Origin: a virus
Taxonomy: Duplodnaviria > Caudoviricetes
Virus record (IMG/VR): IMGVR_UViG_3300011115_000233
Span: 462-64,461 of that record
Reading direction: 5' to 3' (one strand)
DNA: 64,000 nucleotides
The translations under genes were made by a program, and so were the position numbers. Under the pieces are notes generated by a model. That model was not told where the DNA came from and ran no database searches. It was given only the letters and a program-made list of their open reading frames with translations. This document shows, piece after piece, positions 27,862-47,246 of the stretch. The number at the start of each line of letters is the position of its first letter. Positions within the stretch are counted from its first letter, which is position 1.

Positions 27862-27909
27862 CAACCAAGGGGGAGCGCAAGCTCCCCCACCCAACCCAAG
27901 GAGCACACT

Positions 27910-28164
27910 ATGTTGTATCGTGTTAACATCTCGACTGACTGCGGCTTCGGCCTCCCAATCTACGGCAGGACACTCTTCGAGATAATGACTCTGGCATGGC
28001 CACTCATCCAGACATGGAAGCGCAAGTATAAGAAGGACAAGCCGCTGGCCCTGCTCCAGATAGAGTATCAAGGCTTGGTCATGGAGAACTACTTCCACCA
28101 CATCAAGCAGGACGATGTCTCTGACTTCCTCTTCGATGCCATGGGATACCAACGAGCAAGCTAA
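27910..28164 (+). CDS. Early hypothetical protein
   Basis: 84 aa; RBS AAGGAGCA. Confidence 0.6.
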   Translation: MLYRVNISTDCGFGLPIYGRTLFEIMTLAWPLIQTWKRKYKKDKPLALLQIEYQGLVMENYFHHIKQDDVSDFLFDAMGYQRAS

Positions 28165-28293
28165 GGCGGGACGGGGAGGCGGAAGCCTCCCCCAACGCTG
28201 CCCCGTCGATGATAGTAATTCCGTGCGGACCGCCTCTAGTTTCATCACGCGGACAGCTAAAAGCCTCTAACTTTGTTAGTATTACGATTTATG

Positions 28294-28322
28294 TTGACAT
28301 TCCGGTCAGATTGTAAGACAAA
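28294..28322 (+). promoter_or_regulatory. Early cassette promoter 2
   Basis: TTGACA...TGTAAGACA. Confidence 0.55.
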
Positions 28323-28374
28323 CAAGGGGTCAGCGGGACACACCGCTGGCAACCACACACACTAGGAGGCCATC

Positions 28375-28872
28375 ATGGCTGTTAAGACTGTTACTACTCC
28401 CGTTGCAAAAGCACGGGCCGCTTACCTCACCTCGACCGCTTCGACCTACGGCGCTCTGCGTAAGTATGCTGAGGCCCTCACGGACAAGTTTGGCGAAGGC
28501 TGGTGGAAAATCCCGATGAAGGGTCCGCTGTCTGGCAATCAGGCGAAGGTCCGCGACGATATCCGCGCCGAGAAGGCCCTCGTCAAAGAGGGTGCCGAGA
28601 AGAAGCAGAAGGTCAACCCCAAGTATAACATCTACAAGCCTTGGAGCGACGTTCTGGCCTACGTCGATGAGTCGAAGCAGAAGAAAGGGGCCGGTGCTAA
28701 TGCGGCCCGCGAAATCCGCGAGCGGCTCAAGGTGGAGCTTACCAAGCTCTACAAGGCGGTGAAGTCGGATGATGGCGCGGACGATGCCGACCTCGCACAG
28801 GCCAACTGGAATGTTGGCGCGGCTCTTACCGCCCTCGGTGTGGACCTCACCGACCTCAACATCGAAGCCTAA
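28375..28872 (+). CDS. Early protein, paralog A
   Basis: 165 aa; RBS AGGAGG; clearly homologous to 29394..29858. Confidence 0.75.
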   Translation: MAVKTVTTPVAKARAAYLTSTASTYGALRKYAEALTDKFGEGWWKIPMKGPLSGNQAKVRDDIRAEKALVKEGAEKKQKVNPKYNIYKPWSDVLAYVDESKQKKGAGANAAREIRERLKVELTKLYKAVKSDDGADDADLAQANWNVGAALTALGVDLTDLNIEA

Positions 28873-28925
28873 TCGGGAAGGGGAGGCGCAAGCCTCCCCG
28901 ACCTCCCAAACTGGAAGGAACCAAA

Positions 28926-29105
28926 ATGGAAGACACGCTCAACAAAATCGGCTTCACCGCCATGCAATTCGAAAACCTCATCCACGACCTCGCGATGGAG
29001 GCTTGCAAGAACCAGTCGCCAAGCAGCGTCCACTGGATCATGGCCGAGCACGACAAAATCCACCGCATCGTCCGCAGGCTCAATCAGGTGGCCACAGGCA
29101 ACTAG
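28926..29105 (+). CDS. Early hypothetical protein (59 aa)
   Basis: Not in track; RBS AAGGA; MEDTLNKIGFTAMQFENLIHDLAMEACK...; followed by terminator. Confidence 0.55.
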   Translation: MEDTLNKIGFTAMQFENLIHDLAMEACKNQSPSSVHWIMAEHDKIHRIVRRLNQVATGN

Positions 29106-29128
29106 CCCCTACCACATCCCTAGTAACT

Positions 29129-29154
29129 AGCCCCGCTTCGGCGGGGCTTTTTTT
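29129..29154 (+). terminator. Rho-independent terminator
   Basis: AGCCCCGC-TTCG-GCGGGGCT followed by a T run. Confidence 0.9.
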
Positions 29155-29321
29155 GTGCCTCGTTCTGGCCATGCCCCGTTTGGGTCGCACCTAGTTAAAT
29201 CGTCTAACAAAGTTAGGGGCGCTGATGATAGTTAATCCGTGCGGACAGCCATTAAGCAAGTAGGCGGATAGCCGCTAAGGCGACAGAAACGACGTAAATA
29301 CGTCACTTTGTTAGATTTATA

Positions 29322-29350
29322 TTGACTTACGCTTTAATATGTAAGACAAA
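29322..29350 (+). promoter_or_regulatory. Early cassette promoter 3
   Basis: TTGACT...TGTAAGACA. Confidence 0.55.
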
Positions 29351-29393
29351 GAGAGCGTCGGAGAACGACACCACACACTAGGAGTAACACGAA

Positions 29394-29858
29394 ATGCAGA
29401 ACGTATCTAAAGCCCGCGCCGCCTTCCTGACGGCTTCCTCCAGCACCTACGGTAAGCTTAAGGCCTACGCTCTCGCTCTGGAAGAACAGTTTGGCGCAGG
29501 ATGGTGGAACATCCCCATGAAGGGGCCGCTGTCGGGCAACGAAGCCAAGGTGCGGGAAGCCATCCGCATCGAGAAGGGACTGGTCAAGGAAGGGGCCGAG
29601 AAGCGCAAGCTGTCCAACGTCTACAAGCCATGGTCGGATGTGCTGGCCTACGTCAAGGGAGAGAAGAAGAAGGGTGCAGGTGCTAACGCACCACGTGACA
29701 TCCACGACCGGCTGAAGATCGAGTTGACCAAACTCTACAAGGCAGTGCGCAACGACGATGCTGCAGACACCAAGGTGCTGGCACAGACCAACTGGCACGT
29801 TGGGAAGGCACTGGAAGAACTGGGTGTCGATCTGACCGAACTCAACATCACAGAGTAA
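29394..29858 (+). CDS. Early protein, paralog B
   Basis: 154 aa; shares GWW.IPMKGPLSGN, YKPWSDVLAYV and ELTKLYKAV with paralog A. Confidence 0.75.
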   Translation: MQNVSKARAAFLTASSSTYGKLKAYALALEEQFGAGWWNIPMKGPLSGNEAKVREAIRIEKGLVKEGAEKRKLSNVYKPWSDVLAYVKGEKKKGAGANAPRDIHDRLKIELTKLYKAVRNDDAADTKVLAQTNWHVGKALEELGVDLTELNITE

Positions 29859-29949
29859 CCACAGGGACGGGGAGGCGAAAGCCTCCCCCAACCGCCCCGC
29901 CTTTCGTGATAGTAACTCCGTGCGGACAGCCTCTGACTTGAAGGCGTAA

Positions 29950-30360
29950 AGCTTACAATACCTACGTCGATAGGTCTAACTTAGTTAGAGGTTCTTATTG
30001 TAAGGAAACCATGCGGACAGCCACCCTCTGTAAGGGAATTTTGCTTTGTAAGGAAACTACCCCCTATTGTAAGAAAAAAACCCTAGGGTTTCTGCGCTTT
30101 GTACGGGTTGTAAGGAATGTAAGGCGTTTTTCTTACAGACTCGACCAAGCAAGCCTCCTCGCACATGCGTAACCAATGTCAGGAAATCCCTATTATTATT
30201 ATTATTTTTATTAACTTTCTTACACTACACCCCATTTTCCTTCCGAGACCCGCAGACTTCTGCCGTTTCCGATTGTAAGGTTTTACCCTAAATTTCCCTT
30301 ACAAAAGGCCCATTTCCCTTACATTGCCACCATTTCCTTACAGAGATTTCCCTTACAACC
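29950..30360. repeat. Iteron-like TGTAAG(G)/(C)CTTACA cluster around an AT-rich core; candidate replication origin
   Basis: ~7 forward and ~7 reverse copies flanking TATTATTATTATTATTTTTATTAA (30191-30214); non-coding. Confidence 0.6.
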
Positions 30361-30408
30361 CCCATGCCCTCTCACGCCTAACCAAGTTAGGTCTCGTTGC
30401 TCTCCTGC

Positions 30409-30458
30409 CCACATCGCTTGACATAAAGAGGTTTTTGTGCTACATTGAAAAGAAAAAA
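30409..30458 (+). promoter_or_regulatory. Sigma70 promoter
   Basis: CCACATCGC-TTGACA-N17-TACATT with extended TG; near-duplicate at 33317. Confidence 0.75.
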
Positions 30459-30528
30459 CTGCGACGACGGCCCCGCGCCCGACCCGCACGAGTGAGAAGC
30501 ACTAACAAAGTTAGAAGGAGCAGATCAT

Positions 30529-30774
30529 ATGACGCAGATTATCCAGACCACCCAACTCGACCATTGCGACCTGTGCGCTGTGCGCGATGCAATCCAAATC
30601 CGTCAGCTTGCCCACATCAATCGCCTTCGTCGCTTTGCCATTTCTGAAGTAGGTGTTGTCATCGACATCCTTGAGAGCGACCTGCCCAAAGACGCAGCCA
30701 TCGACTCCCTGCGCACCATCCTGCGCCTACTCGACAAGATGCCGACCGACCTCCAGCAGCCAAAGCAGGTTTAA
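30529..30774 (+). CDS. Hypothetical protein
   Basis: 81 aa; RBS GAAGGAGCA. Confidence 0.6.
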   Translation: MTQIIQTTQLDHCDLCAVRDAIQIRQLAHINRLRRFAISEVGVVIDILESDLPKDAAIDSLRTILRLLDKMPTDLQQPKQV

Positions 30775-30779
30775 CTATC

Positions 30780-30971
30780 ATGCGCTGCGATTGCGGAACC
30801 AAGATCAACCCTAAGCGCGTAGCCCTTGGCTACCAAACATGTCCTGTGTGTGGGGACTTGGAGGCGAGGAAGGTAGTCAGGTGCATAGCACCGCTCAACA
30901 AGAGCAACTACGTCCTCGTCTCCAACTACACCGAACTGAAACAACTGAACCCAAAGAACGTCAACGGCTAA
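30780..30971 (+). CDS. Small Zn-finger protein (DksA/TraR C4-like)
   Basis: CDCG..I..KR..LGY.TCPVCG...APLNKSNY. Confidence 0.6.
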   Translation: MRCDCGTKINPKRVALGYQTCPVCGDLEARKVVRCIAPLNKSNYVLVSNYTELKQLNPKNVNG

Positions 30972-31001
30972 TAGGCCTAACAAAGTTAGAAGGAGCAAAG
31001 C

Positions 31002-31088
31002 ATGACCAAGACCGACCTCATCTTCAACCTCGCCATGCGCGGTGGCCTCATCGCCGCAATCATCCTCTACGCCCTACTCGCAGCATAA
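31002..31088 (+). CDS. Small hydrophobic peptide (28 aa)
   Basis: Strong RBS GAAGGAGCAAA; MTKTDLIFNLAMRGGLIAAIILYALLAA. Confidence 0.5.
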   Translation: MTKTDLIFNLAMRGGLIAAIILYALLAA

Positions 31089-31099
31089 GGAGCAAACCA

Positions 31100-31288
31100 A
31101 TGCGTATCACCAGCAACACCTACTACAGCCACGTGAACTTCGTGAAAGGTGGACGGTGGCTGCAAGCCCACACTGCCACACCCGTGCTTAACTACGGCCC
31201 CTTGTGGATAACAGAGTTAGACGGCGAGGCGCTACTTGCCCACTCGCTCAAAGAGATCGACGACACCATCGCAGCCATAACAAAGTGA
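31100..31288 (+). CDS. Hypothetical protein (62 aa)
   Basis: RBS AAGGAGCAAAC; start MRITSNT. Confidence 0.55.
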   Translation: MRITSNTYYSHVNFVKGGRWLQAHTATPVLNYGPLWITELDGEALLAHSLKEIDDTIAAITK

Positions 31289-31302
31289 GAAGGAAACGCA
31301 GT

Positions 31303-31542
31303 ATGGATAAGCAAGCAGACACAGATACCATCGCGCTACTGCGCAAGGTGGAGGAGATGCGTAAGGAACTACGCACACTGGAGACCATGCTGTCTCATGC
31401 GTGTAACGAGTATGGCAAGCGGCGCGGTATGTCCCTGTTCCGCGAGTGGCACGTGAACAACCAGCATGAGATCGAAACCAAACAGATGGAGCGGCTCGAA
31501 GAAGCAGCAGACCGCGATGCGTGGGAGAAGGCCAATGCTTGA
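31303..31542 (+). CDS. Hypothetical coiled-coil protein
   Basis: Start MDKQADT with RBS AAGGA. Confidence 0.55.
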   Translation: MDKQADTDTIALLRKVEEMRKELRTLETMLSHACNEYGKRRGMSLFREWHVNNQHEIETKQMERLEEAADRDAWEKANA

Positions 31543-31598
31543 ACTGGGCATCGGGATGTTAGCCGCTACGTTTGCAGCCCTGCTGTGGGTATTGGAAG

Positions 31599-31871
31599 AT
31601 GAGTAAGGTGAAAGGCCCGCGCATCATTAGCGTGTTTGAGGCAACGGACTTTGGCGGTGGATACCTAGAGGACAGACCGAAGCAGTTTCACGTGACCATA
31701 ACGTTCAAGCAACTGCGCGCACTACCGGACTGGGTGCAGGAGCAACTGCACTGGGGTTACACATACACTAATAACAAACACTGCGAGATAATCATCCATG
31801 CCAAGGACGAACTGGAAGCAGCGATGCGCTTCAAGAAACTGTGGGCAGCAATAACAAAGTTAGGAGAATGA
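31599..31871 (+). CDS. Hypothetical protein
   Basis: Start MSKVKGP; 'AKDELEA' motif shared with 34502..34783. Confidence 0.55.
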   Translation: MSKVKGPRIISVFEATDFGGGYLEDRPKQFHVTITFKQLRALPDWVQEQLHWGYTYTNNKHCEIIIHAKDELEAAMRFKKLWAAITKLGE

Positions 31872-31872
31872 G

Positions 31873-32091
31873 ATGAGTAAGATGAAGCAGGTGTTCATTG
31901 CCTTTGGCAATTGCCCCGACCACGGGGCGCAGTATTTCTATGCGTTCGATGATCCCGACGAGGCTATGCTGTTCGTAGAGAAGGCAGAAGCCCACGACGA
32001 TGACGCAGTGAACGACTGGACTATCATCACACTAACCAACAAAACCGCAGAGGGAGCCTATGCCGAACACCGCGCATGGGTAGAGGAGTAA
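31873..32091 (+). CDS. Hypothetical acidic protein
   Basis: 72 aa; RBS AGGAG. Confidence 0.55.
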   Translation: MSKMKQVFIAFGNCPDHGAQYFYAFDDPDEAMLFVEKAEAHDDDAVNDWTIITLTNKTAEGAYAEHRAWVEE

Positions 32092-32095
32092 GCAC

Positions 32096-32269
32096 ATGGC
32101 ATCCGAATACAACCCGTTGCGGGATCGCAGCTACTACCGCATGATGACGGACGATGAACTGCTGGAACTGGCTAAGTCCGTGAAGACCACGGAACTGGAA
32201 CTGGTGCTGGCCGAACGCCTCAAGAAGGCGAAGAACGAGCAGATCGTGCGCGACTGCGACTGCTATTAA
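32096..32269 (+). CDS. Hypothetical protein (57 aa)
   Basis: Not in track; RBS GAGGAG; MASEYNPLRDRSYYRMMTDDELL... Confidence 0.55.
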   Translation: MASEYNPLRDRSYYRMMTDDELLELAKSVKTTELELVLAERLKKAKNEQIVRDCDCY

Positions 32270-32325
32270 AGAATCACAACAACTAGTCCTAACTAAGTTA
32301 GGCATATCAAAGAAGGAGCAAGACT

Positions 32326-33297
32326 ATGGCATGGGGTAACAGCCTTACATCATACCGCACATGGGGTTTTCCCACGATAACGGATTACGACCATGCGGCA
32401 CGCCGCGAAGCTGAGACTAAGCCTATCAGAGGAGACGCAAACGGCACAAAGCCGCTGGGTGACCGCAAGAAGAAATACGTCAACATCCGCACGGATGCAC
32501 CAGACCCCAACACCAAGAACCCCGACATCGTATGTCGCATGGGTAACACTGACATTGTGCGCTACAAGCCCAATGGGGATGTGGTGGTCAACATCGGCGG
32601 CTGGGCATCGGCTACGATCAACGACTTCCTGTGGCACCTGCTCGGCTTGCCCGCACGGACCTATGACAACAAGACATGGGTGAAGTGCTTCTACAAGGCG
32701 CTGCCCAACGAGACAGCCGTCAGTGGTGAGTATGTGCTGCCTAACAACAGGGACGTTACGTTCCGCAAGGATGAGGTCGCTCGTGTGTGGCTTTCGTGTG
32801 ACGTAGCACCAGCAATGACGCACAAGGTGATCCGTGAGAAGTCTAACTTAGTTAGGAAGTCCTACCCAGCCTTCACACAATACCTACGCAATATGGTCAA
32901 GCTGCGCACGGAGACCAAAGAGACCAAGCACTGGACGGGTGAGATCAATGTCGAGCGGGTTATTACTGTCACAGTGGATGAGATGAAGGCTTTGAACATC
33001 GACGCCCGCATACCCAATCTGGAGTTCCGCAAACGGGGAGAGCCTGCTGCTATGAACCTACGTGTAATGATGCTTAGCGACGATCCAGCGCAGCACTACC
33101 TCGCCTTCATCCTTATCATCCGTGGTGCTTACGCATGGAGTTACGTCCCTGCGGCTGGGCTTAGCGTCTTCGACCACGTGGTCACCGACTTCTATAACAA
33201 GCTGCTGTTATTCATCCACAAGAACGAGGTGCTTGAAGAAGTCCCAACAGACACCAACACGGCGAAGCGCGACACATATCGGCGTTGGTTCGAGTAG
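32326..33297 (+). CDS. Hypothetical protein
   Basis: 323 aa; RBS GAAGGAGCAA. Confidence 0.7.
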   Translation: MAWGNSLTSYRTWGFPTITDYDHAARREAETKPIRGDANGTKPLGDRKKKYVNIRTDAPDPNTKNPDIVCRMGNTDIVRYKPNGDVVVNIGGWASATINDFLWHLLGLPARTYDNKTWVKCFYKALPNETAVSGEYVLPNNRDVTFRKDEVARVWLSCDVAPAMTHKVIREKSNLVRKSYPAFTQYLRNMVKLRTETKETKHWTGEINVERVITVTVDEMKALNIDARIPNLEFRKRGEPAAMNLRVMMLSDDPAQHYLAFILIIRGAYAWSYVPAAGLSVFDHVVTDFYNKLLLFIHKNEVLEEVPTDTNTAKRDTYRRWFE

Positions 33298-33316
33298 AGG
33301 GTAGCCACCCGCCTGA

Positions 33317-33366
33317 CCACATCGCTTGACATGAGCATTACATTGTGCTATAACTAAAAGAAAAAA
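33317..33366 (+). promoter_or_regulatory. Sigma70 promoter
   Basis: CCACATCGC-TTGACA-N17-TATAAC with extended TG. Confidence 0.75.
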
Positions 33367-33437
33367 GAGCGGAAAACCGCCACTAATACCAAGCCTAACC
33401 ATCAACGTCTAACAAAGTTAGAAACTAGGAGCATACT

Positions 33438-34505
33438 ATGTCTATTGATTTCGGTTCAAACATCTCCCTTGACGAAGCTGCCAGCCTCATCGTTTCCATC
33501 CCCGACAACATCTTCCTGCTCGAAGGTGAACCCGGCATCGGCAAGTCCAGCATCATGAAGGCACTCAAGGCCAAGCTTGGTGACGGCTACGCCTATGCCT
33601 ACTTCGATTGCGCCCAGAAGGATTTGGGTGACATCGCAATGCCCAGCCCGAACCGCGACTTGCGGGTAACAGAGTATTTCCCCAACGCGGCGCTCCAACT
33701 GCAATCGGGCAAGCCCGTGGTCATCATGCTTGACGAGTTCGCCAAGGCTCCTCCGCCTGTGCAGAATATGCTGCATCCGCTGCTCGAAGAACACAACCGC
33801 CGCTTGGGTGACGTAGCTTTGACCGACGGGTCTATTGTATTCCTCACCTCTAATCTTTCGACTGATGGCGTGGGTGACGTAATCAAAGGCCATACACTCA
33901 ACCGCGTGACCAAGGTGCGCGTGTCCAAGCCGGATAGCGACCAGTGGCTGGGCTGGGCTGTCAACAACAACATCGACCCTGTTGTGATGGCGTGGGTGAA
34001 GCAGTTCCCTCAAGCACTATCATCATACACCGATGGGACGCAGACCGAGAACCCATACATTTATAACCCCAAGGCTATGCAGAAGTCTTACGTCTCGCCT
34101 CGTTCGCTGTCTCGCGCATCTAACATTGTTAGCAAGCGTGAGAATATCTCGTCCAACGCTCTTACTGCTGCGCTGTCAGGCACAATCGGTGAAGCGGCAG
34201 CCCGCGATATGCAAGCGTTCATCGCCTATCAGGACCAGTTGCCGTCGTGGGATAGCATCATCGCAAGTCCCAAGACTGCTGGGCTTCCGTCATCCGCTGG
34301 GGCGTGTGCCGTGTTGATCTTTGGTGCAATCGCCAAGGTGACTAAAGAAACGATGACCCCGCTGATGGCGTATCTCGACCGCTTCGAACCAGAATGGCAG
34401 GCGACCTTCGCCATCAACATTGCCAAGAACCCGCAGAAGCAGAGCATCGCCTTCACCTCCGCAGCATTTGGTAACTGGATGCAGGCGAACGAAGACCTGC
34501 TGTGA
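33438..34505 (+). CDS. MoxR/CbbQ-like AAA+ ATPase
   Basis: GEPGIGKS Walker A, IMLDEF Walker B, VSPRS sensor. Confidence 0.85.
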   Translation: MSIDFGSNISLDEAASLIVSIPDNIFLLEGEPGIGKSSIMKALKAKLGDGYAYAYFDCAQKDLGDIAMPSPNRDLRVTEYFPNAALQLQSGKPVVIMLDEFAKAPPPVQNMLHPLLEEHNRRLGDVALTDGSIVFLTSNLSTDGVGDVIKGHTLNRVTKVRVSKPDSDQWLGWAVNNNIDPVVMAWVKQFPQALSSYTDGTQTENPYIYNPKAMQKSYVSPRSLSRASNIVSKRENISSNALTAALSGTIGEAAARDMQAFIAYQDQLPSWDSIIASPKTAGLPSSAGACAVLIFGAIAKVTKETMTPLMAYLDRFEPEWQATFAINIAKNPQKQSIAFTSAAFGNWMQANEDLL

Positions 34506-34783
34506 GTATTGAAATATTGGGAGTGAAGCTGTGGGGGTTAGCGTCTCTGGATGAGACGCGCCTACGGCGATACGCAGTCTACTACAAACGTGAAGGGGCT
34601 ATGTGGCGTGGTCTCGTGGATGCCAAGGATGAGTTGGAAGCTTGGCAGAAGTTCCACGGGCAAGTCGATAGCGCCGCACGTATCAATTACCGCCTAACAG
34701 AACAGGAGCAAAAGCAACATGGATATGCAGAAAGCAGAACGCAAGTTGAAGAAGGTCAAGATCGGCCTGATGCGCAACCCTAA
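34502..34783 (+). CDS. Hypothetical protein
   Basis: GTG start overlapping the ATPase stop. Confidence 0.45.
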   Translation: MSIEILGVKLWGLASLDETRLRRYAVYYKREGAMWRGLVDAKDELEAWQKFHGQVDSAARINYRLTEQEQKQHGYAESRTQVEEGQDRPDAQP

Positions 34784-35933
34784 GTTTGCGCTGTGGTCCG
34801 GTGTCATGATGGTCGGCAAGACCAGCGTGGTCGAGGGTATTCCCACGGCTTGCACCAATGGCCGCGACGAGATGTATGGCTTGGAGTTCGTAACAAAGTT
34901 AGATGAGAAGACCCTTGGCTTCGTCATCCTGCATGAGAACCTCCACAAAGCCTTCCGTCATCTGACCACATGGGAGAAGCTGTATAAGGAGAACCCTCGC
35001 CTCGCCAACATCGCGTGTGACCATGTTATCAACCTCATGCTTGTGGATATGGACGCAGGTGAGACTATCATAGCATTCCCGCGCAACGACGATGGTTCCC
35101 GCATGGGCTGCTACGACCCCCGCTTCAAGGGGATGCACACCAAGCAGGTCTACGATCTACTCAAGAAGGAGCAGAAGGAGCGCGGCGATGAAGGCGGCGA
35201 AGGTAACGAGGGCTTCGACGAACACGACTGGGAAGGTGCCAAGGAACTGGACGCCGAGGAGAAGAAGGAACTCGAACGCGAGATTGACCAAGCGTTGCGT
35301 CAAGGCGTCATCGCAGACCAGAAACTGAATGGCAAGGGCGGGGGTAGCCTCAACCGTGAACTGGGCGACCTGCTTCAACCGCAGATCGACTGGCGCGAGG
35401 CGCTGCGTGAGTTTGTCTCGTCCTTCTGCAATGCCAAGGACACTTCGTCATGGCGCAGGGTCAATCGCCGGATGCTCGCACAAGATGTGTATATGCCTAG
35501 CCTAGTAGGTGAGAAGGTAGGCCACATCGCTATCGGCATCGACACATCCGGCTCTATCGGTGCGCATGAACTGAGCGTGTTCCTGTCCGAGGTTAAGTCT
35601 ATCGTAGAAGACGTTCACCCCGATGCGCTCGATCTTATCTATTGGGACGGCGAAGTGGCGGGGCATGAGGTCTACGACATGGCAACCATGTCTAACCTTG
35701 TTAGCTCTACCAAGCCAGTAGGAGGGGGCGGCACCGACCCCCGCTGTATGATGAAGTATCTCAAAGAGAAGCAGATCAAGCCAGAGTGCATCATTCAACT
35801 GACTGACGGATATATCGGGAGTGCATGGGGTGACGAATGGGAAGCGCCAATCATGTGGGTCATCACTGAGAACCGCTATAGCAGCAGCAAGATCGTCGCG
35901 CCTGTTGGCAAGACTGTTCACATCAAGGGTTAA
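34719..35933 (+). CDS. Metallopeptidase-VWA domain protein (DUF2201-like)
   Basis: HENLH (HExxH), DTSGS MIDAS, GGGGTD and LTDGY motifs. Confidence 0.85.
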   Translation: MDMQKAERKLKKVKIGLMRNPKFALWSGVMMVGKTSVVEGIPTACTNGRDEMYGLEFVTKLDEKTLGFVILHENLHKAFRHLTTWEKLYKENPRLANIACDHVINLMLVDMDAGETIIAFPRNDDGSRMGCYDPRFKGMHTKQVYDLLKKEQKERGDEGGEGNEGFDEHDWEGAKELDAEEKKELEREIDQALRQGVIADQKLNGKGGGSLNRELGDLLQPQIDWREALREFVSSFCNAKDTSSWRRVNRRMLAQDVYMPSLVGEKVGHIAIGIDTSGSIGAHELSVFLSEVKSIVEDVHPDALDLIYWDGEVAGHEVYDMATMSNLVSSTKPVGGGGTDPRCMMKYLKEKQIKPECIIQLTDGYIGSAWGDEWEAPIMWVITENRYSSSKIVAPVGKTVHIKG

Positions 35934-35943
35934 GGAGCAAGAC

Positions 35944-36189
35944 ATGACCAAAGCAATCGTTCGCATGGGCTACGACAAGTATGTCATGGACGCAGAGGAT
36001 GCACTGGCCATCCACGAAATTCTCGCCAAGGCAGAACACTATAGCAGCAAATACCAAAGCAAGGATGACGGCGGCACACTGCACTACGTCTACCCGCAGG
36101 ATGCAACCGACGAGATGCGTAGCTTCGAGTTAATGCCCGACGCCCTCTACCGCATGGCCAAGCTGGCGGGGAAACCCGACAATAAATAA
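35944..36189 (+). CDS. Hypothetical protein
   Basis: Start MTKAIV; RBS AAGGAGCAA. Confidence 0.6.
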   Translation: MTKAIVRMGYDKYVMDAEDALAIHEILAKAEHYSSKYQSKDDGGTLHYVYPQDATDEMRSFELMPDALYRMAKLAGKPDNK

Positions 36190-36251
36190 AAACCGGATAG
36201 CAAACCGGACGACCTAACTAAGTTACATATAGCAAAGAAGGAGCAATACTA

Positions 36252-37103
36252 ATGTCTATCTCATCATCCTCGGTTCTTGTCGAACTGAACATCTCCGTCT
36301 GGACCGCCAACAAGCTGGACAAGGACGCGACCAACAAGCTGACTGCTGATAACCGAGCAACCGTAGACGCAGCGCAGGTGCGTAAGAACCTGATGGCTGG
36401 CACCACACTCCGTAAGGACATCGCAGACTTCGCTGCTGGCTGTCGCCTGTGGCACAATGCACGGACATTGCCGTGGTCTGATCGTGGTCCTCGACTGCTA
36501 CCCACAAGCTTGTTCCTCCCATACAAGACAGAAGCCAATCAGCGGCGGGATACGTTCCTGCGGATGAAGGACAAGTTTCGCACGGAATACCCCAAGCTGC
36601 TGGAGACACGGGAACTGGCAATGGGCGACCTGCATAACCCCAACGACTACCCGCCTGTTGACGAGGTGATGGACAAGTTTGGCTTCCGCCTTGTGTTTTC
36701 CCCCGTCCCCGAATCCGGCGACTTCCGCTTGGACATACCGCAGCAGGAGTTGGAAGAAATCCGGCAGGAATACGATGCTAACTTTGTTACACGCATTGAG
36801 GAAGCCATGCGTTCCCCATGGGAGAAGCTGCACGATATGCTGGCGGGCATGAGTGCCAAGCTGACCGAGAGTGACGACGAGACCAAGAAGCGGTGGCACG
36901 ACACGTTCGTTACCAATGCGCAGGATATGTGCGCAATGCTGACCCATCTCAACATCACAGGCGACCCGAAGCTGGAAGCCGCACGGCGGCAACTGGAACA
37001 GGCGCTCATCAACATCGACATCGACGACATTAAGGAAGAAGTGGGTGTCCGCGTAGACCTAAAGCAGAAGGTCGATAACATCCTCAAGGGCTTTGACTGG
37101 TAA
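36252..37103 (+). CDS. Conserved phage protein (DUF3150-like)
   Basis: LVELNISVWTA.K.D, TLPWSDRGPRLLP and LNITGDPKLE motifs. Confidence 0.65.
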   Translation: MSISSSSVLVELNISVWTANKLDKDATNKLTADNRATVDAAQVRKNLMAGTTLRKDIADFAAGCRLWHNARTLPWSDRGPRLLPTSLFLPYKTEANQRRDTFLRMKDKFRTEYPKLLETRELAMGDLHNPNDYPPVDEVMDKFGFRLVFSPVPESGDFRLDIPQQELEEIRQEYDANFVTRIEEAMRSPWEKLHDMLAGMSAKLTESDDETKKRWHDTFVTNAQDMCAMLTHLNITGDPKLEAARRQLEQALINIDIDDIKEEVGVRVDLKQKVDNILKGFDW

Positions 37104-37115
37104 GGAGCAACTATC

Positions 37116-38009
37116 ATGATGGACTACAACAACTACGAATATATCGAACTCGTCGGCTACAAGAACGTATTCAGGCGTGAGCATAAGTCGATGGTTAACC
37201 CAAACGCGCAACCGGCTGTGCTGCATCCCATCCTTGTGCCGTTCATAGATGCGCTAATAGAGAAGCGCCCCAAGTGGAAGTTTGTGGCTACGCAGCGACA
37301 GGGTATGGTCAGACTCGACGACGGGACACCTGCGCCTTCGTATAGCTTTCTCAAAGTCTACGACAGCAACGAGATACTGGGGGAGATCGACTTCAGTTAC
37401 ACCTACCGTAACAACGAGAGCCAGACTAGCTACGCCTATGACAACGAGAGGCTGGCTGCGAAGCGGCAGCGTGGAAGCTGGACCAAGACGACAAAGCTGG
37501 ACAAGGCAGTCAAGGACGTTCTCAAGGCATTCCGCCCGAAGGACACAACCGAGATTGTGCGGGACCGGATGAAGCTTGTGGGTAGCACCGTGAACAATAC
37601 GGTGGATGCAGAAGCCCGCAACTTTGGCTTCGCGTATGGCAGGCTGAACGGGCAGATGACTAACTTTGTTATGTCTAACTGGGCGATGCTTTCCTCTATG
37701 ATGCTAGAAGCAGGTCTCCAATTCGACCCTACGCTACCTGAACTTTACGAAGCCGCCGAGGTGGCTAAGGCTATGGGGGAATCCATCGGGCAAAACGGAA
37801 GTGGCCTGTCCATAATCGTGCGACCCAACGATTATCTTGTAGTGCGCACATCTGGTGATGTAGAGATAAAGACATCGGAGGAACTGCCACCCGAAGTGCG
37901 ACGCAAACTGGGTATGCTCAAGCTGACGGAGGTTAAGCAGTATATCCCCGACATGGGTATCCGCTGTGCGGAAGACACCTACTTTATTACCGGAAAGGAC
38001 ATGATGTGA
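37116..38009 (+). CDS. Hypothetical protein
   Basis: 297 aa; RBS AAGGAGCAA. Confidence 0.7.
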   Translation: MMDYNNYEYIELVGYKNVFRREHKSMVNPNAQPAVLHPILVPFIDALIEKRPKWKFVATQRQGMVRLDDGTPAPSYSFLKVYDSNEILGEIDFSYTYRNNESQTSYAYDNERLAAKRQRGSWTKTTKLDKAVKDVLKAFRPKDTTEIVRDRMKLVGSTVNNTVDAEARNFGFAYGRLNGQMTNFVMSNWAMLSSMMLEAGLQFDPTLPELYEAAEVAKAMGESIGQNGSGLSIIVRPNDYLVVRTSGDVEIKTSEELPPEVRRKLGMLKLTEVKQYIPDMGIRCAEDTYFITGKDMM

Positions 38010-38182
38010 CTGAAGAAACAAAACGCTATCGCGGACAACGCGGGCCGGGCAAGCGCCCTGCCATGACCCTTACGAACTTGCGACTGCGGACGGATGTTCT
38101 CGACTTCTACAAGACGCACCCTAGCTACACGGCGAAGATGCGTGAAGTCCTAACAGAGTATGCAGAAGCCAACAAATCCTAG
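38006..38182 (+). CDS. BrnA-antitoxin-like ribbon-helix-helix DNA-binding protein (58 aa)
   Basis: Not in track; GTG start overlaps the upstream stop; RGPGKRPAM..TNLRLRTDVLDFYK....YTAKMREVL. Confidence 0.65.
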   Translation: MTEETKRYRGQRGPGKRPAMTLTNLRLRTDVLDFYKTHPSYTAKMREVLTEYAEANKS

Positions 38183-38211
38183 ACCCAGTTACTCCTAACT
38201 TGGTTAGAACT

Positions 38212-38277: not shown

Positions 38278-38302
38278 GGGGGGCCTAACAAGGAGCAACC
38301 CA

Positions 38303-39659: not shown

Positions 39660-39985
39660 CCGACAGGACAAAAGCAATGGACAGCCTGATTGCACAGGAC
39701 GCAGACTTGATCGACGTACCATCAAGGGTGACGGAGGCAGATCGTGAAGTGCTTATCCGCCTCAGCAATCCAGATGACGAAACTGCCCAGCGTATTCGGC
39801 GCGGCCTGATCTATACGTGGGAGGCTAGGCAGATCGCCAATCACCGCGAACAGGCAGCAGCAGAGGAGCGCGCCAAGATCGTGGCGTATCTCCTGAACGA
39901 GCAGCGGGAATACCCCCGCACTGAATACTCAGGGTTCGCAGCGATGATCGCGGAAATGATAAGCGCAAAGGAGCATTTAAAATGA
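39656..39985 (+). CDS. Hypothetical protein
   Basis: ATGA-coupled ORF. Confidence 0.55.
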   Translation: MTDRTKAMDSLIAQDADLIDVPSRVTEADREVLIRLSNPDDETAQRIRRGLIYTWEARQIANHREQAAAEERAKIVAYLLNEQREYPRTEYSGFAAMIAEMISAKEHLK

Positions 39986-40164: not shown

Positions 40165-41981
40165 ACGTCATCACCATTGACTTCGAGACCTACTACGACC
40201 AGCAATACTCCCTGTCCAAGATGACAACGGAGGAATACATCCGTGACGAGCGCTTTGAGGCTATTGGCGTAGCGGTTAAGGTCAATGGTGGCGAGACGCA
40301 GTGGTTCAGTGGGACCAAAGTAAAAACCAAAGAGTGGCTGGACCAATTCCCGTGGGACGATGCCGTGGCCGTGGCGCATAACGCTGTGTTCGACATGGCT
40401 ATCCTTAACTGGCATTTCGACATCCGACCCAAGCGCATTGTGGATACTCTATCTATGGCACGAGCCATACACGGCACGGAAGTGGGCGGTAGCCTCAAGG
40501 CGCTGGCGACTCATTACCAGTTGGGAGCGAAAGGCACTGAGGTGTCCAACGCGCTAGGTAAACGGCGACTAGATTTCACACCGGAGGAACTGGCCCGCTA
40601 TGGGGAATACTGCGTCAACGATGTAGACCTCACCCATAAGTTATTTGAGCGGCTTGCTGCGGGCTTCCCGCTGCTAGAGTTGCGGCTGATCGACCTGACC
40701 ATACGCATGTTCTCTGAGCCTGTGCTGGAACTGGATAGGTGGTCATTGGTGGCTCATCTAGCCAAGGTGAAGGACACGAAGAACCAGCTACTGGGTAAGG
40801 CGCTAGTGGACAAGGCGGACATTATGTCCAACCCGAAGCTGGCCGACCTGCTGCGCAAATGTGGCGTGGAGCCACCGATGAAGATCAGCCCTACCACTGG
40901 CAAAGAAGCGTTCGCCTTCGCTAAGTCGGACGAGGCATTTAAGGAGTTATTGGAGCATGAGAACCCTGTCGTTCAAGCGATTGTGGCGGCGCGTCTTGGT
41001 GTCAAGTCTACGCTGGAAGAGACGCGCACTCAGCGGTTCATTGATATTGCCAACCGTGGGACCCTGCCCATCCCCCTACGTTACTATGCAGCGCACACCG
41101 GACGCTGGGGAGGCGACGACAAGGTCAACATGCAAAACCTCCCACGGAAGTCGCCGCTAAAGAAAGCTGTGCTGGCACCCAAAGGCTATACCTTTATCGA
41201 CTGCGATAGCAGCCAGATCGAAGCGCGCACCTTGGCGTGGCTGGCAGGGCAGAATGATTTGGTTGAAGCATTTGATAGGGGGGAAGATGTGTACAAGATC
41301 ATGGCGTCCGCTATCTACGGTAAGCCGGTCGAAGAAATCTCGGACGACGAGCGGTTCGTCGGGAAAACCACCATCCTCGGTGCCGGATACGGCATGGGAG
41401 CAGCAAAGTTCAAAGCCCAGCTAAAGACATTCAACGTCGATATGGAACTAGAAGAGTGTGAGCGTATCATTCGGGTGTATCGTGAAACCTACCCCAAGAT
41501 ACCAGAGTTGTGGCGTGAGGCTGGCGATGCGCTGGATGCAATGGCTAACAATCAGACGGCACCACTGGGACTGGCCGGTGTGCTTACGGTGTGCGGTACA
41601 GACGGTATCAAGCTGCCCAATGGGCTAAGCCTCAAGTACCCTAACCTGCGCTGGGTATATAACGAGAAGAACAAGCCGGAAATGCTCTACGATCAGAAGA
41701 AGGGCAAAGCCGTCATCCCTACCCGCATCTACGGTGGGAAAGCAGTTGAGAATATCTGCCAAGCACTGGCCCGCATCGTGATCGGTGAGCAGATGTTGAT
41801 GATCGCACGGCGCTACCGTGTGGTGATGACCGTGCATGACGCCGTGGGGAGCCTTGCTCCTACGGAAGAAGCTGAAGAGGCACGGAAGCATGTCGAAGCG
41901 TGTATGCGTATTCGGCCAAAATGGGCGGCGCAATTGCCGCTGAATTGTGAGAGCAAGATGGGAGCAAGCTATGGCGGGTAG
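40161..41981 (+). CDS. polA: DNA polymerase, family A, with 3'-5' exonuclease
   Basis: DFET (ExoI), HNAVFD (ExoII), YCVNDV (ExoIII), HTGRW, DSSQIEAR (motif A), KTTILGAGYG (motif B), TVHD (motif C). Confidence 0.93.
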   Translation: MNVITIDFETYYDQQYSLSKMTTEEYIRDERFEAIGVAVKVNGGETQWFSGTKVKTKEWLDQFPWDDAVAVAHNAVFDMAILNWHFDIRPKRIVDTLSMARAIHGTEVGGSLKALATHYQLGAKGTEVSNALGKRRLDFTPEELARYGEYCVNDVDLTHKLFERLAAGFPLLELRLIDLTIRMFSEPVLELDRWSLVAHLAKVKDTKNQLLGKALVDKADIMSNPKLADLLRKCGVEPPMKISPTTGKEAFAFAKSDEAFKELLEHENPVVQAIVAARLGVKSTLEETRTQRFIDIANRGTLPIPLRYYAAHTGRWGGDDKVNMQNLPRKSPLKKAVLAPKGYTFIDCDSSQIEARTLAWLAGQNDLVEAFDRGEDVYKIMASAIYGKPVEEISDDERFVGKTTILGAGYGMGAAKFKAQLKTFNVDMELEECERIIRVYRETYPKIPELWREAGDALDAMANNQTAPLGLAGVLTVCGTDGIKLPNGLSLKYPNLRWVYNEKNKPEMLYDQKKGKAVIPTRIYGGKAVENICQALARIVIGEQMLMIARRYRVVMTVHDAVGSLAPTEEAEEARKHVEACMRIRPKWAAQLPLNCESKMGASYGG

Positions 41982-42414
41982 ACCAAAATACGAAAGCGCG
42001 GCTGACCGTGGGAACCAGTATTATGTCCTTAGTAAGTTAGAACGAGCATTTGGTGTGGCAGCAGCGCACCTACCCACTGAGGAATATGCGTTCTACGATG
42101 GGGTATTCACCATTGGCGGTACCAAGTGCGTGGTCGAGGTAAAGGTTAGGAAGAACGAACGTAGCCGATACCCTACGTACATGCTTAGTAAGATGAAATA
42201 CGATACGCTGTGTAGTGTAACCAAGCAGGGGGCGGACGCCCTTTTAGCAGTCCAATGGACTGACCAGCTTGGTGTTATCCAACTACCAACTGAGCATACT
42301 GTTAGCACTGGTGGCCGGTATGACCGGAACGACCCACGGGATGTAGAACAGGTAGTCCTCATACCAGTTAATAAATTCAAACGAGTACCAGAACAGGAGC
42401 AAAACGATGAGTGA
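41971..42414 (+). CDS. PD-(D/E)xK nuclease-like protein
   Basis: YD...VEVKVR motif. Confidence 0.55.
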   Translation: MAGRPKYESAADRGNQYYVLSKLERAFGVAAAHLPTEEYAFYDGVFTIGGTKCVVEVKVRKNERSRYPTYMLSKMKYDTLCSVTKQGADALLAVQWTDQLGVIQLPTEHTVSTGGRYDRNDPRDVEQVVLIPVNKFKRVPEQEQNDE

Positions 42415-44159: not shown

Positions 44160-44170
44160 GGAGCAACACA

Positions 44171-44674: not shown

Positions 44675-44675
44675 C

Positions 44676-45347
44676 ATGACAGCGTGGTCCTATAGTAGCA
44701 TTAAGACCTTCGACCAGTGCCCGAAGAAGTACTTTCACCTTAAGGTTGTAAAGGACGTTAAGGATACGCCGGGAGAGGCTGCTGACTATGGGACCGCAGT
44801 CCATGAAGCTGCCGAGTTGTTCATCAAAGATGGCACCCCGATACCGGCTAAGTTTGGTTACATGAAACCCATCGTGGAGTCTCTTGCCGGTATCGACGGT
44901 GAAAAGTACACCGAGTTGAAGCTGGGTGTCACCAAGACGGATGCTGGTTACGAGCCGTGCAGCTTCTTCGCCAAGAATGTCTGGTGGCGTGGCATCGTCG
45001 ATCTGGTCATCATCAATGGGCACAAGGCTTACATGGTGGACTACAAGACGGGTAAGAGCGCTAAGTATGCTGATACCAAGCAGCTTGACCTGATGGCGGG
45101 CGCGTTGTTCGTGCATTATCCGGGACTTAAAGTGATTAAGTCTGCTCTAGCATATGTAGTGAGCAACGAATTTATCAGAAAGGTCCATGTCCGAGAGGAG
45201 ATGGATACATACCTAACCGTGTTCGCCGACGAACTGGGCCGCTTGGAACATGCCGAACTCAGTGGCGTGTGGAACCCCAAGAGTGGCCCTTTATGTGGCT
45301 GGTGCCCTGTGGTAGAATGCGAACACCACCGCCCACGGAGACGATAA
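44676..45347 (+). CDS. Cas4/RecB-like PD-(D/E)xK exonuclease
   Basis: WSYS..F.QCP, GTAVH, GIVDL, VDYKTGK, QL, C.WCP..C. Confidence 0.85.
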   Translation: MTAWSYSSIKTFDQCPKKYFHLKVVKDVKDTPGEAADYGTAVHEAAELFIKDGTPIPAKFGYMKPIVESLAGIDGEKYTELKLGVTKTDAGYEPCSFFAKNVWWRGIVDLVIINGHKAYMVDYKTGKSAKYADTKQLDLMAGALFVHYPGLKVIKSALAYVVSNEFIRKVHVREEMDTYLTVFADELGRLEHAELSGVWNPKSGPLCGWCPVVECEHHRPRRR

Positions 45348-45625
45348 TGGCCCGCGACTATAAGAAGGAAGCCAAGTACGAAGCCCAGCCACAGCAGGTG
45401 AAGAACCGCGTGGCGCGCAACGCAGCACGGCGCAAGCTTATGAAGGAAGGCAAGGTTCACAAGGGCGACGGCATGGATGTCGCGCACGTAAAAGCTTTCG
45501 ATAAGGGTGGTAGCAATAAGAACGGAGTGCGTGTAGAAAGCGCCTCAGCCAACCGCTCGTTCAAACGGGACAGCAAGAAGAACCTTGTGTCTGAAACCAG
45601 CAAGCGGGAACGCAAAAAGAAGTAA
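45347..45625 (+). CDS. Small basic HNH-like protein
   Basis: MARDYKKE..RN.ARR..KGDG.DVAH...GGSN...NRS. Confidence 0.65.
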   Translation: MARDYKKEAKYEAQPQQVKNRVARNAARRKLMKEGKVHKGDGMDVAHVKAFDKGGSNKNGVRVESASANRSFKRDSKKNLVSETSKRERKKK

Positions 45626-45645
45626 CTCATAGGTGGAGATACACC

Positions 45646-47196
45646 GTGCAAATTATAGATAACAAAGCGCTGGTCGTAGAGACCAGCAACCCAAGCCTAA
45701 TTACCCAGAGCATCCAGAAAAGCACGATAATCGGGGAAAACCAAGTGGCCGTCAGGTGGGGGCTGCAAGAAGTGCAGACCCTTGCTAACCTAGGTTACAA
45801 GGACGCCCCGTCGCCTATCAAGCGTGACTATAAGTGGACCGGCAAGCATACGCCGTTCGCGCACCAAGAGACCACCTCATCCTTCCTTACAGCTAACAAG
45901 CGGGCCTTCTGCTTCAACGAGCAGGGTACGGGTAAGACGGCCTCAGTCATCTGGGCAGCGGACTATCTGATGAAGCTGGGTAAGATTAAGCGCGTCCTCG
46001 TGCTATGCCCTCTGTCGATCATGAAGTCCGCATGGCAGCGCGACCTGTTTACTTTCGCCATGCACCGCTCATGCAGTGTGGCTCATGGGGATGCCAAGGC
46101 CCGCAAGAAGATCATTGAGGCCGGTTCCGACTTCGTCATCCTAAACTTTGATGGTCTAGCTATCGTAGAGGATGTGATCCGTGACGGCGACTTTGACCTG
46201 ATCGTAGTGGATGAGGCTAACGCCTACAAGAACGCACAGACCAATCGCTGGAAGGTGCTGGCTCGTATGGTGAAGGACCTTGACCCTTACCTGTGGATGC
46301 TAACGGGTACACCCGCAGCACAAAGTCCTGTAGATGCCTTTGGTCTGGCAAAGCTGGTTAATCCCAACAACTGCCCAAGCTACTACGGCCTGTTCCGCGA
46401 TCAAGTCATGTTTAAGGTGACCCAGTTCAAATGGGCACCGAAGCCCAATTCAGATCGTGTCGTCCACCGTGTGTTGCAACCTGCTATCCGGTTTGAGAAG
46501 AAGGACTGCCTTGATCTACCGGAGGTCACGTTCACTGAGCGCGAGGCACCGCTTACAGCGCAGCAGAATAAGTACTACCTGCAACTTAAGAATGAGATGC
46601 TGATTGAGGCAGGCGGCGAAGAGATTAGTGCCGTCAATGCAGCAGTCAAGATCAATAAGCTGCTCCAGATCAGCGGAGGTGCGGTCTATTCAGATACTGG
46701 AGAAGTCATTGAGTTTGATGTCTCCAACCGCCTGAACGTGGTGCTGGAGGTCATTGAGGAGGCTGCAAACAAGGTGCTGGTCTTCGTGCCCTTCACGCAC
46801 ACCATCGAACTGTTGCGCGCCAAGATAGAGAAGGCTGGTGTCACCTGCGATGTCATCAATGGTAAGGTGCCACTGAATAAGCGGTCTGAGATCGTCGATA
46901 ACTTCCAGACTCGCAAAGACCCGCATGTGCTTATCATCCAGCCACAGGCTGCATCGCACGGGCTTACGCTTACGGCAGCAGATACAATCATCTGGTACGC
47001 CCCGGTAACGAGTGTTGAGACCTACCTACAAGCCAACGCCCGTATCAACCGTCCGGGCCAGAAAAATGCAATGACCATCGTGCACATCCGTGGCAGCGAA
47101 GTGGAGGACCGCCTGTTCTCCATGCTGCGGGGCAACATAAAAAACCACGAAAAGATTATTGATCTGTACCGGCAGATGATGATTGATGCTGCTTGA
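45646..47196 (+). CDS. SNF2-family (SF2) helicase
   Basis: EQGTGKT, VVDEA, LTGTP, HGLTLTAA, QANARINRPGQ. Confidence 0.9.
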   Translation: MQIIDNKALVVETSNPSLITQSIQKSTIIGENQVAVRWGLQEVQTLANLGYKDAPSPIKRDYKWTGKHTPFAHQETTSSFLTANKRAFCFNEQGTGKTASVIWAADYLMKLGKIKRVLVLCPLSIMKSAWQRDLFTFAMHRSCSVAHGDAKARKKIIEAGSDFVILNFDGLAIVEDVIRDGDFDLIVVDEANAYKNAQTNRWKVLARMVKDLDPYLWMLTGTPAAQSPVDAFGLAKLVNPNNCPSYYGLFRDQVMFKVTQFKWAPKPNSDRVVHRVLQPAIRFEKKDCLDLPEVTFTEREAPLTAQQNKYYLQLKNEMLIEAGGEEISAVNAAVKINKLLQISGGAVYSDTGEVIEFDVSNRLNVVLEVIEEAANKVLVFVPFTHTIELLRAKIEKAGVTCDVINGKVPLNKRSEIVDNFQTRKDPHVLIIQPQAASHGLTLTAADTIIWYAPVTSVETYLQANARINRPGQKNAMTIVHIRGSEVEDRLFSMLRGNIKNHEKIIDLYRQMMIDAA

Positions 47197-47220
47197 CATT
47201 GTCAAATAGCATTGTAAGAA
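47193..47220 (+). promoter_or_regulatory. Promoter whose -35 lies within the palindrome TTGACATTGTCAA
   Basis: TTGACA-N16-TAAGAA upstream of the SSB-like cluster. Confidence 0.5.
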
Positions 47221-47246
47221 TACCGGTGTCTAATAAGGAGCAACCT

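Follow-up and report, generated by a model that had tools for sequence, protein, structure and literature searches.

Why should the ribosome-binding sites (RBSs) of one gene module in a phage genome share the bases that follow the Shine-Dalgarno (SD) sequence? The question is raised by a 64,000-nucleotide stretch of DNA (the window, bases 462-64461 of the 64,461-bp phage record IMGVR_UViG_3300011115_000233 in IMG/VR), in which GGAGCA stands before a series of plus-strand genes. A first examination of the letters (hereafter the sequence-only reading) had proposed that the extension CA(A) is recognized by a trans-acting factor, preferably a small RNA (sRNA) encoded at 51.9 kb, or alternatively an RNA-binding protein or a RegB-like endonuclease. 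The present analysis favours the first of these options, on the grounds of an antisense copy of the motif, a conserved cassette that contains it, and covariation between the loop of the putative RNA and the RBS. We consider it probable that a phage RNA, either an sRNA or the 3' end of an operon transcript, pairs with the extended RBSs and represses their translation.

The structural genes of the window occupy the minus strand at 0.8-27.3 kb, and a further minus-strand block lies at 52-64 kb. Early and replication genes are found on the plus strand at 27.6-51.9 kb, where they encode an AAA ATPase, DNA polymerase A, a PD-(D/E)XK nuclease, an SNF2 helicase and a DUF927 primase-helicase. When 15 kb of the window were compared by megablast with cultured phages, no match was obtained, and none of them is close at the DNA level. 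Our gene model comprised 89 open reading frames (ORFs), whose starts were picked blind to the bases after GGAG, and RBS motifs were counted at positions -20..-4 of each start. It should be noted that the small ORFs at 31002 and 31100 were not captured by this model and would add two plus-strand GGAGCA cases.

The GGAGCA extension in the early and replication module

The sequence-only reading had named 16 plus-strand starts preceded by GGAGCA, and the motif was found at all 16, each time 4-10 nt 5' of the ATG. Fifteen of these starts open ORFs of at least 40 amino acids (aa), and the ATG at 31002 opens a 28-aa ORF only. Over both strands, GGAGCA occurs in 56 copies compared with 38.9 +/- 6.7 after shuffling (56 or more in 1/100 shuffles), and AAGGAGCAA with at most one mismatch occurs in 33 copies compared with 14.5 +/- 3.1, a number reached in 0/100 shuffles. 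On the plus strand of the gene model (42 genes), GGAG is present in 25 RBSs, GGAGCA in 14 and GGAGCAA in 10, whereas on the minus strand (47 genes) GGAG is present in 16 and GGAGCA in 1. The expected difference between strands is therefore borne out (14/42 versus 1/47 genes, Fisher p=8.7e-5), also when only GGAG-bearing RBSs are considered (14/25 versus 1/16, Fisher p=0.0021).

The motif had also been described as strand-specific. This holds for its enrichment on the plus strand and not as a strict rule, since the minus-strand start at 13944 (GTG, 1186 aa) has GGAGCA as well. Moreover, the plus-strand genes at 27640, 28375, 29394, 40161, 45646, 47664, 48852 and 51685 do not carry it; the first three are the promoter-proximal early genes, and those at 40161, 45646, 47664 and 48852 are replication genes. 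The specificity of the motif is for a gene module, not for a strand. The extensions previously listed for the late strand were read in the same way here (GGAGTA at 9161; GGAGCT at 19693 and 14112; GGAGG at 21089, 17446, 9605 and 7857). On the other hand, 9161 had been taken as the start of the major capsid protein, which was a misassignment: it opens a 42-aa ORF, and the capsid gene is located at 18146-19054 on the minus strand, encoding a protein 73% identical to that of Planktothrix phage Pag-Yong1. Its RBS is likewise GGAGTA.

An antisense hairpin in a conserved cassette

What could read such an extension? In the window, AAGGAGCAA occurs exactly ten times, and its chance expectation in 128 kb is ~0.5 by arithmetic estimate. 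Nine copies are plus-strand RBSs. The tenth, the only exact copy outside RBSs, is antisense (51899-51907), the plus strand reading TTTGCTCCTT at 51898-51907. This segment is the complement of AAGGAGCAAA and covers the loop and reaches into the 3' arm of a plus-strand hairpin, GGAAG-TTTGCTC-CTTCC (51893..51909), which is located 14 nt 3' of the stop of a 64-aa ORF and 15 nt 5' of the strongest plus-strand terminator. The latter is an intrinsic terminator (51925..51959) formed by a stem-loop at 51925-51949, with 10 bp (9 G-C) and a 5-nt loop, and then TTTTTCTTTT. Together, hairpin and terminator fold with a minimum free energy of -32.6 kcal/mol (z -3.1). A perfect complement of at least 8 nt to the 17-nt hairpin is present in 14/44 plus-strand initiation regions and in 0/46 on the minus strand, and in the target initiation regions this complement covers GGAG.

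The length of the perfect match between each plus-strand initiation region and the 17-nt hairpin differs among the GGAGCA RBSs. It is longest, at 11 nt, for the 28-aa ORF starting at 31002 (RBS 30992..30997, complement GAAGGAGCAAA) and the 62-aa gene at 31100 (31089..31094), followed by 10 nt for the 323-aa gene at 32326 (32315..32320) and the 283-aa gene at 36252 (36240..36245). Matches of 9 nt are found for two 81-aa genes, at 30529 (30517..30522) and 35944 (35934..35939), the 404-aa DUF2201 gene at 34719 (34705..34710), the 297-aa gene at 37116 (37104..37109), the 106-aa resolvase-like gene at 38303 (38292..38297), the 162-aa gene at 42407 (42396..42401) and the 167-aa DUF6378 gene at 44171 (44160..44165). 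The 84-aa gene at 27910 (27900..27905) and the 60-aa gene at 39982 (39970..39975) have 8 nt, and the 355-aa AAA ATPase gene at 33438 (33428..33433) and the 147-aa PDDEXK gene at 41971 (41961..41966) have 7 nt. The remaining RBS (47237..47242) belongs to a conserved 134-aa gene (47247-47651), which is the target common to the whole phage group. The complementarity is a direct observation.

On this basis, we propose that a short plus-strand RNA would be made from ~51.89-51.96 kb, consisting of the hairpin GGAAG-UUUGCUC-CUUCC, a linker and the intrinsic terminator, and that UUUGCUCCUU, which comprises the loop and the first bases of the 3' arm, would pair with the extended RBS AAGGAGCAA(A) of 14-16 genes of the early and replication module. 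Pairing would cover the SD sequence, and translation of the target genes would fall; the late genes on the opposite strand use GGAGG, GGAGT or no SD sequence and would escape. Since the duplex would cover both GGAG and the spacer, repression through a block of the 30S subunit would be expected, and because the address is carried by ~16 early or replication RBSs and is absent from late genes, a selective shut-down would be allowed. The conserved core of the system could be a negative feedback, in which the RNA, located at an operon's 3' end, would pair with the RBS of the first gene in that operon, and the same address may have spread to many more RBSs in the phage lineage of the window.

The opposite sign, pairing that helps the targets by nuclease protection or by opening an inhibitory structure, was also considered. 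The covariation described below reveals pairing and not its sign, and many targets are replication genes required in quantity. However, no inhibitory structure was found in the short leaders, and the predicted duplex covers GGAG and the spacer, a cover that blocks the 30S subunit in the case of the phage c4 RNA (available portion of PMC12197685). A helper role therefore appears distinctly unlikely to us.

Conservation of the cassette was examined in IMG/VR. A search with the primase-helicase yielded 19 loci (44-91% aa identity), and the hairpin GGAAG...CTTCC precedes a terminator in 12/14 examined primase-helicase loci (L014 carries a variant and one locus ends too early). A pattern scan with GGAAGNNNGCTCCTTCC returned at least 117 stretches, from which at least 65 distinct hairpin + terminator sequences, window included, were obtained by requiring a terminator-like sequence downstream; one of the 65 (L076) is missing the usual context. 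Nearly all cassettes come after the C-terminal sequence ..G-L-R-I/V-W.. conserved in the small ORF, and in relatives the distance from the conserved 134-aa gene to the hairpin downstream is always 4.6-4.8 kb. When loci were picked solely by homology to the 134-aa gene, of which more than 545 relatives exist in IMG/VR, the hairpin was found again at the same distance. The conservation of the arrangement is plainly visible in the data.

The phages with a similar capsid (Pag-Yong1, MinM2, DSL-LC04 and HTVC023P) gave no tblastn match to the 134-aa gene; Rhizobium phage RHph_TM3_14A and Pseudomonas phage Rollin, two distant relatives in culture, have the gene, with no anti-SD hairpin at the syntenic place. 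A pattern scan of genome contigs returned 12 stretches, only one of which was a true cassette (L240, on an 8-kb contig of a metagenome bin), and it provided no prophage copy and no clue to the host. A blastn search with the 261-nt region found terminator-like chance matches only.

The proposed RNA could originate from promoter-like boxes of its own, as the processed 3' end of an operon that begins at 47.2 kb, or both. The boxes TTTACG-16-TACTAA (51858..51885, plus strand) end 7 nt 5' of the hairpin and are weak in the window genome. The operon is predicted to consist of a promoter, the 134-aa gene, a 299-aa gene, a helix-turn-helix (HTH) gene, the primase-helicase gene and the 64-aa ORF, with the RNA at its 3' end. 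Its promoter-like site, TTGACA-17-AAGAAT (47193..47221, plus strand), is located directly 5' of the 134-aa gene with its -35 box within the palindrome TTGACAttGTCAA, and a TTGAC box (the TTGACAnnGTCAA promoter-like site) is found at the same place before the 134-aa gene in 21/22 relatives shown. A consensus scan of 47.2-51.9 kb detected no comparably strong plus-strand terminator-like site, and the operon 3' end is thus another possible source of the RNA. In the window (47193-47205) and its relatives, the -35 box falls within the conserved palindrome TTGACAnnGTCAA, which resembles an operator and is perhaps a candidate site for the HTH protein of the same operon (48542-48796).

The 64-aa ORF (51685..51879, plus strand) is the constant neighbour of the RNA. 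Over 20 homologues, its mean column identity is 60% and 10 residues are invariant, and its last codons (GGT TTA CGN ... TGG) contain the -35-like box of the RNA. Its structural model, a small alpha/beta fold with a predicted local distance difference test score (pLDDT) of 89.4, gave no convincing fold match (best Z 5.2, uninformative), and the model of the 134-aa protein (pLDDT 86.8) gave no match in the PDB at E<=0.001. NCBIfam and Pfam returned nothing for either protein.

The possibility that the hairpin is simply an RBS of the minus strand was rejected: no ATG/GTG/TTG comes 4-12 nt after it on that strand, the U-tract of the terminator is on the plus strand only, and among relatives the convergent downstream genes vary while the upstream ORF stays constant. 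In the window, the convergent gene is a minus-strand 2212-aa ORF (51958-58596) for which Pfam gave no family. Its stop codon and the U-tract of the plus-strand terminator overlap, and late read-through transcripts would therefore be antisense to the hairpin RNA.

Covariation between loop and ribosome-binding site

If two RNA segments pair, changes in one should be accompanied by changes in the other, and such changes were observed between the hairpin loop and the RBS of the 134-aa gene in 51 loci. Loop TTT occurs with GGAGCA in 23/24 loci, loop TTA with GGAGCTAA in 13/13, loop TTC with GGAGCGAA in 4/4 and the six-base loop CT with GGAGCAAA in 5/5; loop ATA occurs with GGAGCT in 2/4, and for loop TCA a match was found in 0/1. 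The matched loop/RBS pairs are GUUUG/CAAAC, UUAG/CUAA and UUCG/CGAA, to which the loci picked by homology add GUUG/CAAC (in two separate clades), GUUUUG/CAAAAC and GAAUCG/CGAUUC. In these homology-picked variants, the U-run of the loop has as many bases as the A-run of the RBS. In a quick tree built from the 134-aa protein, compensated changes appear ~6 separate times, the TTC group being nested within the TTA clade. Furthermore, the longest Watson-Crick match averages 9.9 nt for a locus' own RNA-RBS pair versus 8.4 with other loci (53 unique loci), a mean reached in 0/10,000 permutations and lowered by five rows that used a wrong start. Pairing of the stem is also kept through double changes (GGAAG/CTTCC in 45/53, GAGAG/CTCTC in 5/53 and GCAAG/CTTGC in 1/53).

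These results bear on two explanations that need no RNA reader. First, CA(A) could merely reflect composition or a preference of efficient translation for A/C-rich unstructured spacers, with the antisense copy a coincidence. The plus strand of the module is indeed A-rich (AT skew +0.12 to +0.19) and several leaders are CA-rich. However, the extensions CAAAC, CAAC, CAAAAC, CTAA, CGAA and CGATTC each match the loop of their own phage, and the exact 9-mer is present only at RBSs and once antisense; covariation already disfavours this explanation, to which we give very little credence. Second, GGAGCA could be read by a protein, namely a RegB-like endonuclease or an RNA-binding repressor, and the hairpin could be unrelated or a decoy. 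Most small plus-strand proteins are without a known family, and such a protein could hide among them. Nevertheless, this alternative of the sequence-only reading gained no support: Pfam scans of 47 window proteins detected none of the RegB-, CsrA- or Hfq-type families, and among 42 proteins scanned there was no RegB-type PHROG. The transcribed strand of the hairpin bears the complement of the motif rather than the motif itself, and a single-strand RNA-binding protein would leave the conservation of this complementary copy unexplained. In addition, Watson-Crick covariation of loop and RBS is a prediction of RNA-RNA pairing and not of recognition by a protein. A protein reader thus seems highly improbable.

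Does the address extend to other genes? To answer this at the level of whole genomes, GGAG RBSs on the same strand were counted in six genomes. GGAGCA accounts for 17/37 and 13/35 of them in two T-loop genomes (30/72), GGAGCG for 5/23 in a C-loop genome versus 1/134 elsewhere (p=2e-4), and GGAGCT for 7/62 in A-loop genomes versus 1/72 in T-loop genomes (p=0.02); over all six genomes, the counts of GGAG extensions differ by loop class (chi-square p=3e-7). Individual genes follow the same trend. The 283-aa gene at 36252 has GGAGCAA in the window, whereas its orthologue in the C-loop genome (loop TTCGCTC) has the RBS GGAGCGAACC. The RBS of the helicase orthologue reads GGAGCAA in the second T-loop genome, GGAGCTAA in two A-loop genomes and GGAGAT in the window. 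These differences between orthologues indicate that membership in the addressed set varies between phages and that the address tracks the loop.

The main rival of the proposed regulation is a purely cis fold-back, in which the 3' end of the operon transcript (47.2-51.96 kb) folds onto the RBS of its own first gene and the other GGAGCA RBSs are unregulated, similar to the icaR mRNA discussed below. The conserved target is invariably the gene that opens the same predicted operon, at a fixed 4.6-4.8 kb, without a comparable plus-strand terminator in between, and the RNA promoter of the window is weak. On the other hand, 31/51 unique relatives keep a strict -35/-10 pair whose spacing to the hairpin is fixed. 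At these promoter-like sites, the codons GGT TTA CG provide a -35-like TTTACG, and a TAtAnn box follows 16-18 nt on, ending 6-7 nt 5' of the hairpin; in a second class the distance is 31-33 nt, and the predicted RNA has a 5' extension with another CU-rich stretch. Moreover, RBSs in other predicted transcription units follow the loop (14/44 initiation regions in the window, GGAGCG in 5/23, and the orthologues of the 283-aa gene and the helicase), and one 3' end cannot serve many RBSs in cis. Action in trans is favoured by these two observations, namely that most relatives have promoter-like boxes and that targets are found in other transcription units, and we regard an exclusively cis mechanism as unlikely.

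Several points weigh against regulation by RNA pairing as we propose it. The loci are related, and the Fisher and permutation p-values consequently overstate independence, the number of independent compensated changes being ~6. Some loci do not fit: L089 has a TTT loop with a CTAAC RBS, L052 a TCA loop with GGAGGAAAT, and L029, L050 and L221 an ATA loop with CAGGA; L165 and L057 mismatch too, and in L212 the anti-SD hairpin is absent. Even in the window, the RBS of the 134-aa gene has a 9-nt match only (CAACC versus loop UUUG). The changes CU, AU, AUA and UCA in the two loop bases farthest from GCUCC are uncompensated. The six paired bases CUCCUU would match any SD sequence, so that specificity resides in 2-5 extension bases only, and the seed is partly within the 3' arm of the stem. 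The T-loop and C-loop genomes follow their loops, but in A-loop genomes GGAGCT (7/62) is no commoner than GGAGCA (6/62). Finally, the window and its four nearest relatives fail a strict consensus test at the RNA's own promoter, and in the window genome the RNA may accordingly come mainly from the 3' end of the operon transcript.

A separate observation concerns four loci (L182, L173, L225 and L211) in which the RBS of the 134-aa gene is of the type AGAGGTA in place of GGAGC. In L182, TACCTCT stands in the region of the RNA before the terminator; as it is the complement of AGAGGTA, it hints at possible covariation of the SD core itself.

The covariation is a plain feature of the aligned loci, and from the patterns in these sequences we infer that the RNA exists, acts in trans and represses. 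A wider picture, offered tentatively, is quite possible. A large uncultured phage group might run a private translational address consisting of an anti-SD plus 2-5 bases. Its regulon would be fluid (from 1-3 genes to ~16), and its code would drift by co-evolution of loop and RBS (U:A, A:U, C:G and matched indels). The RNA might serve as a timer or copy-control brake on the replication module, with late genes still translatable.

If the proposal is correct, one phage RNA would address a set of its own genes via an extension of the SD sequence, and the matched substitutions and one-base indels in loop and RBS, an unusually clean set of comparative data, would define an RNA-target pair. In this environmental phage group, no cultured member carries the cassette. 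The system would offer a candidate for natural orthogonal translational control, with at least three variants of the loop/RBS code in nature. For annotation, an RNA family absent from Rfam 15 would be added and a conserved non-canonical RBS extension would be accounted for.

Known anti-SD RNAs and other repeats of the early region

Most phage regulatory RNAs known so far act on a single gene (c4, sar and OOP) or on the host, and anti-SD sRNAs that cover an RBS block the 30S subunit. The closest known system is the c4 RNA of P1/P7 (Citron and Schuster 1990), followed by icaR's 3' untranslated region (3'UTR) and cellular anti-SD sRNAs. According to the available portion of the review PMC12197685, c4 blocks translation of a phage gene of its own operon by pairing, through its loops, around that gene's RBS. 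As portrayed there, c4 resembles the RNA proposed here in being made by a phage and encoded apart from its target, in having a target in the same operon and in showing matched changes between related phages; it differs in lying upstream of the target, in acting on one gene (an antirepressor) and in serving the immunity of temperate phages. The window RNA, on the contrary, would be located at the 3' end of a replication operon and use an anti-SD seed with a private extension to address ~16 RBSs. The Rfam C4 family gave no match at the gathering threshold, at E<=10 over 51600-52050 or at E<=1 over 51860-51990, and no Rfam family was matched at the gathering threshold.

In the icaR mRNA of Staphylococcus aureus, an anti-SD motif in the 3'UTR pairs with the SD sequence in the 5'UTR (PMC3868564, in the portion available). 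The likeness lies in an anti-SD at the 3' end of a transcript directed at the first gene's SD in that transcript; as far as that portion goes, icaR differs in being a single-gene cellular mRNA regulated in cis. In the window, the distance is 4.65 kb, most relatives keep promoter-like boxes for a separate RNA, and addressed RBSs are present outside the operon. That both sites of the window could share one transcript is suggested by consensus scans only, which predicted a promoter at 47193 and no comparable plus-strand terminator-like site before 51925.

Another resemblance is to the Betaproteobacteria toxic sRNA family (RF02278), whose members are ~60 nt long, with an intrinsic terminator after a CU-rich anti-SD stretch. 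The match to RF02278 is full-length and weak (22 bits, E 0.01-0.035), and the gathering score is 50; the window RNA is thus not a member. RF02278 RNAs contain generic CCUCC-type motifs and have no function assigned in the available portion of PMC4603805, whereas the window RNA would be phage-encoded, with a specific extension co-evolving with phage RBSs.

The T4 RegB endoribonuclease cuts GGAG in early RBSs and hence also represents a phage mechanism that singles out early RBSs by a sequence overlapping the SD. RegB is, however, a protein enzyme, and here no RegB Pfam family was detected (47 proteins) and the evidence points to RNA-RNA pairing. A search of published literature (supplements outside the search) for phage RNAs with an anti-SD seed acting on phage RBSs found no description of the element. 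What would be new here, in the best-supported reading, is a private, co-evolving extension of the anti-SD, by which a phage RNA addresses a set of genes of the same phage.

The early region contains other repeats. The palindrome TAACNNNGTTA has 20 exact copies in 28268-38206 and one more at 50573, and with at most one mismatch 48 copies were counted compared with 17.4 +/- 4.6 after shuffling. Several copies are directly 5' of an RBS (CTAACAAAGTTAGAAGGAGCA at 30503 and 30978) and others are within genes; the palindrome might bind a protein or form a small RNA hairpin. GTTAG(A) adjoining the RBS was seen in relatives too. Another repeat, TGTAAGG, has 10 of its 14 window copies in non-coding 29999-30357, with six on the plus strand (29999-30280) and four on the minus strand (30297-30357), an iteron-like inverted array that might serve as a replication origin or in regulation.

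The early genes 28375-28872 and 29394-29858 are paralogous, their proteins being 68% identical and of no known family. Both are preceded by a near-identical promoter-like site, TTGAC[AT]-17-GACAAA, with a CACACACTAGGAG leader, and a third such site with its leader is located before 27640. Each early gene is followed by a G+C-rich hairpin that fits GGGGAG(G)C-GNAA-GC(C)TCCCC and has no U-tract (27866-27888, 28170-28192, 28875-28900 and 29862-29888); these hairpins may be RNA-stabilising or processing elements.

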